This document shows, piece after piece, positions 2,754 through 3,676 of a DNA stretch of 23,911 bases (positions are counted from its first letter, which is position 1; every line of letters starts with the position of its first letter). Both the position numbers and the translations under genes were made by a program. This DNA is from a virus. Lineage: Duplodnaviria; Heunggongvirae; Uroviricota; Caudoviricetes. Under the pieces are notes generated by a model. The model was not told where the DNA came from and ran no database searches. It saw nothing but the letters and a program-made list of their open reading frames with translations. The stretch is from the IMG/VR virus record IMGVR_UViG_2526164594_000022; one strand, 5' to 3'.

Positions 2754-3676
2754 ATGACAAATACAGCAAAAATACTCAACTTCGGCAGAGGTAACTTTGC
2801 CGGACAGGAGCGTAATGTGGCAGATCTCGATGATGGTTACGCCAGACTATCAAATATGCTGCTTGAGGCTTATTCGGGCGCAGATCTGACCAAGCGACAG
2901 TTTAAAGTGCTGCTTGCCATTCTGCGTAAAACCTATGGGTGGAATAAACCAATGGACAGAATCACCGATTCTCAACTTAGCGAGATTACAAAGTTACCTG
3001 TCAAACGGTGCAATGAAGCCAAGTTAGAACTCGTCAGAATGAATATTATCAAGCAGCAAGGCGGCATGTTTGGACCAAATAAAAACATCTCAGAATGGTG
3101 TATCCCTCAAAACGAGGGAAAATCCCCTAAAACGAGGGATAAAACATCCCTCAAATTGGGGGATTGCTATCCCTCAAATTGGGGGATTGCTATCCCTCAA
3201 AACAGGGGGACACAAAAGACACTATTACAAAAGAAAAAAGAAAAGATTATTCGTCCGAGAATTCTGGCGAATCCTCTGACCAGCCAGAAAACGATCTTTC
3301 TGTGGTTAAACCGGATGCTGCAATTCAGAGCGGCAGCAAGTGGGGAACAGCAGAAGACCTGACCGCCGCAGAGTGGATGTTTGACATGGTGAAGACCATC
3401 GCGCCATCAGCCAGAAAACCGAATTTTGCTGGGTGGGCTAACGATATCCGCCTGATGCGTGAACGTGACGGACGTAACCACCGCGATATGTGTGTGCTTT
3501 TCCGCTGGGCCTGCCAGGACAACTTCTGGTCCGGTAACGTGCTGAGTCCGGCCAAACTCCGCGACAAGTGGACCCAGCTCGAAATCAACCGTAACAAGCA
3601 ACAGGCAGGCGTGACAGCCAGCAAACCAAAACTCGACCTGACAAACACTGACTGGATTTACGGGGTGGATTTATGA
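2754..3676 (+). pseudogene. O: Replication initiator O, frameshifted by a 23-bp iteron duplication
   Basis: N-terminal ORF 2754-3362 and C-terminal ORF 3164-3676 both match lambda O (MTNTAKILNFGRG... and ...DCYPSKQGDTKDTITKEKRKDYSSENSGESSDQPENDL...TDWIYGVDL) but in different frames. Total span is 923 bp, i.e. 900 bp of O plus 23 bp. Confidence 0.8.
3102..3210 (+). repeat. ori-lambda-type iterons, five copies (one duplicated) followed by an A/T-rich region
   Basis: 19-bp iterons ATCCCTCAAAACGAGGGAA, ATCCCCTAAAACGAGGGAT, ATCCCTCAAATTGGGGGAT (twice, 23-bp period), ATCCCTCAAAACAGGGGGA, then an A-rich tract ACAAAAGAAAAAAGAAAAG. Confidence 0.85.

Follow-up and report, generated by a model that had tools for sequence, protein, structure and literature searches.

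In bacteriophage lambda, gene O (NC_001416, positions 38686–39585) encodes the replication initiator and also contains the origin, ori-lambda, with its four iterons (39034–39118). Origins of this type have at least three imperfect inverted-repeat iterons of ~19 bp, which are bound by O dimers, and depend on transcription from pR in cis; the C-terminal part of O contacts P and recruits P–DnaB. The lambda ori-minus mutants r93, r96 and r99 are reportedly small in-frame deletions of iteron sequence. Next to the iterons lies an A+T-rich region that has an unwinding role in ori-lambda (PMC5043065), and three iterons are reported to be sufficient for lambda (PMC7466680). The Stx phages 933W and P27 have raised their iteron number by a duplication inside O, which adds 39 nt (13 codons) in frame and leaves O functional; plasmid replication depends on the extra iterons of these six-iteron origins (Kozlowska et al. 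2020, PMC7466680). Iteron number thus varies naturally, in working phages only in frame.

The locus described here lies in Sp1, the cryptic lambda-like prophage of Escherichia coli O157:H7 Sakai, which is called CP-933H in EDL933. Sp1 follows the lambda gene order with a truncated P (cI–OR/pR–cro–cII–O–P′). Its iterons 1–4 and A+T-rich region are identical to those of lambda, and so is its O once an extra copy of iteron 3 and its spacer is removed. It departs from lambda in that extra copy, in a frameshift after residue 141 of O and in a P gene cut after ~21 codons. Sp1 resembles 933W and P27 in having gained iterons by duplication inside O, but its addition is 23 nt long and out of frame. It resembles r93, r96 and r99 in a change of length between ori-lambda repeats, presumably by misalignment; in those mutants the change is in frame, the origin is damaged in cis and O is active, whereas in Sp1 the change is out of frame, O is broken and the origin sites are probably intact.

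The window (the whole stretch of DNA analysed, 23,911 nt) matches O157:H7-type genomes at 100% over its entire 23.9 kb, and the 1001 nt around the duplication are 100% identical to many O157:H7 chromosomes, including those of Sakai, EDL933 and EC4115. The Sakai annotation places 'prophage Sp1, lambda-like phage' beside thrW, with O and P as pseudogenes (ECs_0277 and ECs_0279), and the EDL933 PGAP annotation describes O (EDL933_RS01450) as 'replication protein, frameshifted' and P as 'incomplete'. Sakai Sp1 has the same O pseudogene as the window and differs from it in an IS1203 copy, present in the window only, and in tail-fibre orientation. The IS1203 copy, an IS3-family IS1203/IS629 element, occupies positions 1–~812 between the Sp1 integrase remnant and a 127-aa ORF (Rfam ALIL frameshift pseudoknot at 361–477 and orfA at 432–758, both on the minus strand); it is carried by EC4115-type strains and not by Sakai. 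The UK strains Z1812 and Z1814 have another IS1203 insertion nearby, in opposite orientation. The tail-fibre segment (~4312–6190), beside a pin invertase gene, runs in the opposite orientation to that of Sakai; strains AR-0428, 3-5-1 and F7386 have it as in the window. As both orientations occur among strains, the invertase is apparently active, now or recently. The adjacent P4-like prophage Sp2 gives two Rfam matches in the region pair 17877–17954 and 18023–18110: isrK (71.9 bits, 17877–17954) and C4 antisense RNA (84 bits, 18023–18110).

The iteron array and gene O

The features of the O region are as follows.

2754–3676, plus strand: gene O (replication initiator), the Sp1/CP-933H pseudogene; 923 nt (900 + 23), annotated as frameshifted
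2754–3362, plus strand: frameshifted ORF in frame 0; 202 aa, made up of O residues 1–141 and 61 out-of-frame residues
3164–3676, plus strand: ORF in frame +2 encoding the intact C-terminal part of O; no Pfam match
3102–3210, plus strand: lambda-type origin array of five iterons (starts at 3102, 3122, 3146, 3169 and 3192); the four of lambda are annotated at homologous positions
3146–3168, plus strand: duplicated unit, copy 1, consisting of iteron 3 (19 nt) and spacer TGCT
3169–3191, plus strand: duplicated unit, copy 2 (the extra copy); adds 23 nt to O, a frame change of +2
3211–3255, plus strand: A+T-rich region (the ori-lambda unwinding region), adjoining the iterons and identical to lambda in the alignment

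The two 23-nt copies at 3146–3168 and 3169–3191 are identical. Tandem Repeats Finder reports a period of 23 nt over 3146–3201 (2.4 copies, 100% matches, 0 indels), and a search of the window for the 23-mer ATCCCTCAAATTGGGGGATTGCT finds these two occurrences and no others, against 0 in 100 shuffles. Scanning with the iteron consensus gives five matches (3103–3120, 3123–3140, 3147–3164, 3170–3187 and 3193–3210), against an expectation of 0, and none elsewhere in the window. The locus has these two parts of an ori-lambda: an array of five sites, four of them identical to the annotated lambda iterons, and an A+T-rich unwinding region to their right. The iterons are spaced 20, 24, 23 and 23 nt from start to start; because the insert is a whole iteron with its spacer, natural iteron spacing is retained. 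For the source strain, the copy number is that of its assembly, with which 191 others agree.

Lambda O and the window gene align with one 23-nt gap and are otherwise free of indels (900 against 923 nt), and no compensating indel exists anywhere across the O gene. As 23 is not a multiple of 3, the reading frame is lost after codon 141 and runs into a stop 61 codons on (3362). The Pfam Phage_rep_O domain (residues 22–115, profile positions 2–95 of 95, E = 1.9e-36) lies wholly upstream of the shift, so that the origin-binding domain is present and what has gone is the uninterrupted frame of ~299 codons joining the two halves of the protein. The limits of this domain are reportedly residues 19–139; a PDB sequence search with O for the domain boundary returned 0 matches. 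The frameshift would thus prevent the C-terminal, P-contacting half of O from being made, while a complete origin-binding domain could still be produced. The C-terminal ORF at 3164–3676 bears no sign of being translated.

Programmed frameshifting was considered as a means of rejoining the two frames, which would take a −1 shift in their overlap (3164–3362), and was rejected. No canonical slippery heptamer (X XXY YYZ) lies in frame in the overlap; the sole candidate, A AAG AAA at 3230, breaks the Y=Y rule, and the longest run of A is 6.

These results bear out in full what a preliminary description of this DNA, made from its letters, had observed of its structure. It had reported a tandem copy of iteron 3 and TGCT with a 23-bp period, and its coordinates are exact; it had counted five iterons where lambda has four, as the consensus scan also does; and it had placed the N- and C-terminal parts of O in different frames within a span of 900 + 23 bp, which the alignment confirms, the single insertion being without a frame-restoring indel. 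Its further inference that the geometry of the origin is altered holds for the number of iterons (5 against 4) and goes too far for their spacing, which is natural; the six-iteron Stx phages are, moreover, functional. The origin sites themselves are, on this comparison, probably not disabled by the fifth iteron.

With one 23-nt copy removed in silico, the gene again encodes 299 aa and its product matches lambda O at 100%. The extra copy aside, the gene differs from that of lambda at 15 nucleotides, of which all are synonymous (0 non-synonymous). Since the restored protein is that of lambda, with only synonymous differences, the break must be recent; the 15 of 15 also indicate that O was under purifying selection until shortly before it was broken and has not decayed further since.

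Gene P and the immunity region

The features on either side of the O region, namely the immunity region upstream and the remains of P downstream, are as follows.

1295–2008, minus strand: cI repressor of lambda immunity type; 237 aa, with helix-turn-helix and S24 peptidase domains intact
2019–2082, strand not assigned: operators OR3–OR2–OR1 with pR; OR1 and OR3 identical to lambda, OR2 different by 1 nt
2109–2721, plus strand: cro (2109–2309) and cII (2428–2721), which precede O in the pR operon; both proteins identical to those of lambda
3673–3736, plus strand: what is left of gene P (first ~21 codons), up to the deletion junction at 3736, beyond which there is no homology to lambda; PGAP gives 'missing C-terminus'
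3737–3984, plus strand: foreign sequence that continues the reading frame of the P remnant (joint ORF 3673–3984, 103 aa) and leads to the tail-fibre genes

The P deletion (junction 3736/3737) is large, runs into the tail-fibre genes and is found in every copy of Sp1 examined, including those in which O is intact. The fusion ORF continues for 82 unrelated codons, with a weak match to DUF2612 below the Pfam cut-off. The PGAP label of the second part of the P region, 'phage replication protein, missing N-terminus', is apparently annotation carry-over and not real homology. A complete O + P module has an intact helicase loader P of 233 aa; here ~21 codons remain, so that the replication module is dead whatever the state of O. 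Published work agrees on the status of the element. Sp1 was described as severely degraded, with repressor and Cro conserved, integration and replication scored 'D' (defective) and the rest absent, and neither circularization, replication (by array data) nor packaging was detected (Asadulghani 2009, PMC2669165).

The immunity region is intact and close to that of lambda. Window positions 1291–3736 are collinear with lambda 37223–39645 at 97.3% identity (blastn), the only collinear stretch, and pR, cro and cII stand upstream of O in lambda order. The Sp1 cI differs from that of lambda by four substitutions (T3A, K71N, R129K and D139G) and, judging from its sequence, looks functional. It presumably silences the cro–cII–O′ operon in the lysogen. 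[quoted passage not shown] On antibiotic treatment the CP-933H tail-fibre genes downstream of O′/P′ are induced about 30–60 fold (PMC4048457), which would fit SOS-dependent derepression of pR and read-through. With what is in essence the lambda immunity region, O157:H7 strains bearing Sp1 may be immune to phages of lambda immunity.

Distribution of the duplication and of the four-iteron allele

Occurrence of the duplication was assessed with a 36-nt query that spans the new junction and to which a four-iteron sequence gives no seed. The query matched 192 records, accounting for 191 of 5426 complete E. coli genomes, of O157:H7 type throughout among the matches listed. It matched 0 of 50,697 phage records and 0 species-representative genomes, the latter set being uninformative because it holds one genome per species. 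The sequence of iterons 3–4 is much commoner, being present in 1126 E. coli genomes, and the phage records among the matches listed (lambda, phage 21, HK140 and SfI included) all have four-iteron spacing. The duplication is rare and essentially confined to Sp1. Such confinement is expected if the duplication kills a working phage and is tolerated only where P has already gone. Strain M1300706001A (NZ_CP089272.1) has two places that match the junction. One apparent exception, 'plasmid pAR-0428-2' (NZ_CP044147.1, 46.9 kb, linear), was set aside as a mislabelled chromosomal contig that reads dinB–proA–thrW–Sp1–Sp2.

The junction also occurs in seven IMG/VR contigs from other assemblies, six of which are Sp1 itself. 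IMGVR_UViG_2541047164_000016 (minus strand, 11960–13020) has this 23-nt duplication, flanked by SNPs of Sp1 type, in a Stx2-phage context: cII and the N terminus of O are Sp15-like (G17E, L37I), P and ren are intact, an extra A lies at O codon 3, and ORFs of 319 and 89 aa, the size of Stx2A and Stx2B, follow downstream. This arrangement was found in no complete E. coli genome, and the contig is probably either a chimera of draft assembly or a rare recombinant between Sp1 and a Stx prophage.

We then built a synthetic four-iteron Sp1 query by joining window positions 3020–3168 to 3192–4300, across the P deletion junction. It has a one-piece match in 13 complete O157:H7 genomes (twelve at 100% and 7386WT at 99.8%, against 98.2% for five-iteron genomes), a few of which could be consensus errors, as some of the assemblies are rich in indels (JEONG-1266 and Rafaela_II). 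The strains are 272, SS52, JEONG-1266, Rafaela_II, ECP19-798, 3-5-1, Al Ain, 08-3918, Z1812, 26_141088, UTME-4, PNUSAE151637 and 7386WT. Annotation was fetched for 11 of the 13; all of these list O, at 900 nt, as an intact 'replication protein' and have P cut exactly as in the window. The extra copy at 3169–3191 is thus missing from 13 genomes that carry Sp1, as it is from lambda and from the thrW prophage of O55:H7 CB9615 (NC_013941, 302634–330000). The latter is an apparently complete lambdoid prophage with an identical cII protein, an intact O with four iterons and an intact P. We considered it as the direct ancestor of Sp1; its repressor is different, which makes it a relative and a different element. 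The thrW site has thus been occupied by related yet distinct phages.

No lineage assignment for 272 or Z1812/Z1814 was found in the literature searched, and we therefore used local SNP and IS markers to compare backgrounds, in 14 strains over the 5.4–6.8 kb between proA and the P junction and in five over 41 kb. Two SNPs and the IS1203 insertions place the four-iteron allele on at least four local backgrounds, three of which also hold five-iteron genomes. The first is shared by four-iteron 272, SS52, 3-5-1 and 7386WT and five-iteron EC4115, F7386 and the window; the second by four-iteron ECP19-798 and Al Ain and five-iteron Sakai; and the third by four-iteron Z1812 and five-iteron Z1814, both of which carry the same proA SNP and derived IS1203 insertion. 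Over 41 kb, three SNPs group four-iteron SS52 with five-iteron EC4115, apart from 272. On these markers, at least three independent changes in iteron number, in either direction, appear to be needed.

Tandem repeats can be miscounted, and with 13 assemblies giving four iterons the five-iteron state might itself be suspected of being an assembly or sequencing artefact. This is hardly credible. Many laboratories and platforms contributed to the 192 records that have the junction, among them the finished genomes of Sakai and EDL933; the seven IMG/VR contigs have it too, and a repeat of 46 nt is much shorter than any read length used. Identical sequence in Sakai, EDL933, EC4115 and 191 genomes means that the duplication is not the artefact of one assembly.

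Mechanism and consequences of the duplication

The 10-nt direct repeat ATCCCTCAAA opens both iteron 3 and iteron 4 of a four-iteron parent, its two copies starting 23 nt from each other. Slipped-strand misalignment on ATCCCTCAAA during replication would produce exactly the 23-nt duplication observed, and any misalignment inside the ATCCCTCAAA repeat leads to the same junction. The iterons, being inverted repeats, could stabilize the misaligned intermediates. Once formed, two perfect 23-nt repeats would allow slippage in the opposite direction, with loss of one copy and restoration of a lambda-identical O in some O157:H7 sublineages. We therefore propose, with a probability of about 0.82, that a slippage duplication broke O in a replication module that was already dead, and that the lesion is recent, most likely neutral, unstable and reverting in sublineages.

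The direction of change is the point at which this proposal meets its main competitor, in which four iterons are ancestral in Sp1 and the same duplication was gained repeatedly, or gained once and then spread by recombination. Slippage on the 10-nt repeat fixes the junction, so that independent gains would look alike, and in the 41-kb comparison of five genomes, taken alone, two gains cost no more than three losses. Even so, we consider this unlikely. Records with five iterons outnumber those with four by 192 to 13, and five-iteron genomes occur on three backgrounds, those of EC4115 and Sakai included. Gain is rare: among the 1126 genomes with the iteron 3–4 sequence, the duplication is seen in O157:H7-type genomes only, among the matches listed. 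As a general matter, a copy should be lost between two perfect 23-nt repeats more readily than one is gained on a 10-nt repeat. Repeated loss, from five iterons to four, is thus the simplest reading, given the frequency of records and the mechanism.

The consequences of the break are limited by the fate of P. The preliminary description had gone on to infer an inactivated initiator, consistent with a replication-defective, domesticated prophage. The full-length O frame is indeed broken in the window, but the state varies, since 13 related genomes have an intact O. Replication-defective is also the published status of Sp1 (PMC2669165); the frameshift is not its cause, because the P deletion precludes replication anyway: neither the four- nor the five-iteron state retains an intact P or any of the replication and late genes that would follow it. 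'Domesticated' is without support: a benefit to the host is not indicated, and with 15 synonymous against 0 non-synonymous differences the gene has the look of recent neutral decay. The O frameshift is, in our assessment, a late, reversible and most likely neutral lesion in a module that the P deletion had already disabled.

In another reading the truncated O, or the extra iterons, would have a function: on induction they would block or titrate initiation at the near-identical origins of co-resident or incoming lambda-type phages, Stx phages included. The Phage_rep_O domain is complete and the cI–pR–cro–cII–O′ operon intact, other resident prophages have lambda-type O genes, lambda O binds the iterons of Stx phages, which are nearly identical (PMC7466680), and plasmid-borne ori or iteron fragments inhibit rep-lambda phages (PMC3349717, PMC4488673). 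The published inhibition, however, needs multicopy plasmids, whereas Sp1 is present in a single copy and repressed in the lysogen; 13 strains are without the frameshift and there is no sign of selection keeping the truncated O; and the 61-aa out-of-frame tail may destabilize the protein. We regard such interference as improbable. Equally far-fetched is its extension, in which the 23-nt unit is a reversible on/off switch of a lambda-identical O in a prophage with an intact, SOS-responsive lambda immunity region; the 'off' product, an origin-binding domain alone, would on induction interfere with the near-identical origins of co-resident Stx prophages and so modulate toxin yield. The locus does share with phase-variable loci a repeat of non-3n length in a coding frame that varies among relatives (a 23-nt unit, 13 genomes with one copy and 192 records of the same clone with two). 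It lacks a switched gene with a working function, as P and the genes downstream are deleted in both alleles. Were there such a switch, it would make O157:H7 strains that are isogenic in other respects differ in toxin yield and in the replication of their Stx phages.

Much of this was already known: the pseudogene annotation of O (RefSeq) and the replication defect of Sp1, and prophage decay of this kind is ordinary, here in a bacterial genome that ranks among the best studied. The literature searched held no text that names an iteron duplication as the lesion in O, and the four/five-iteron polymorphism within O157:H7 is a small new detail. It would take on greater importance only if truncated or restored O affected the replication of resident Stx phages. 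The exact lesion shows that where the origin lies inside the initiator gene, that gene is prone to frameshift by the origin's own repeats. The polymorphism also calls for caution, as 'pseudogene' calls at tandem duplications may revert, and the occurrence of both four and five iterons within the very young O157:H7 clone makes iteron number a possible fast-evolving marker.
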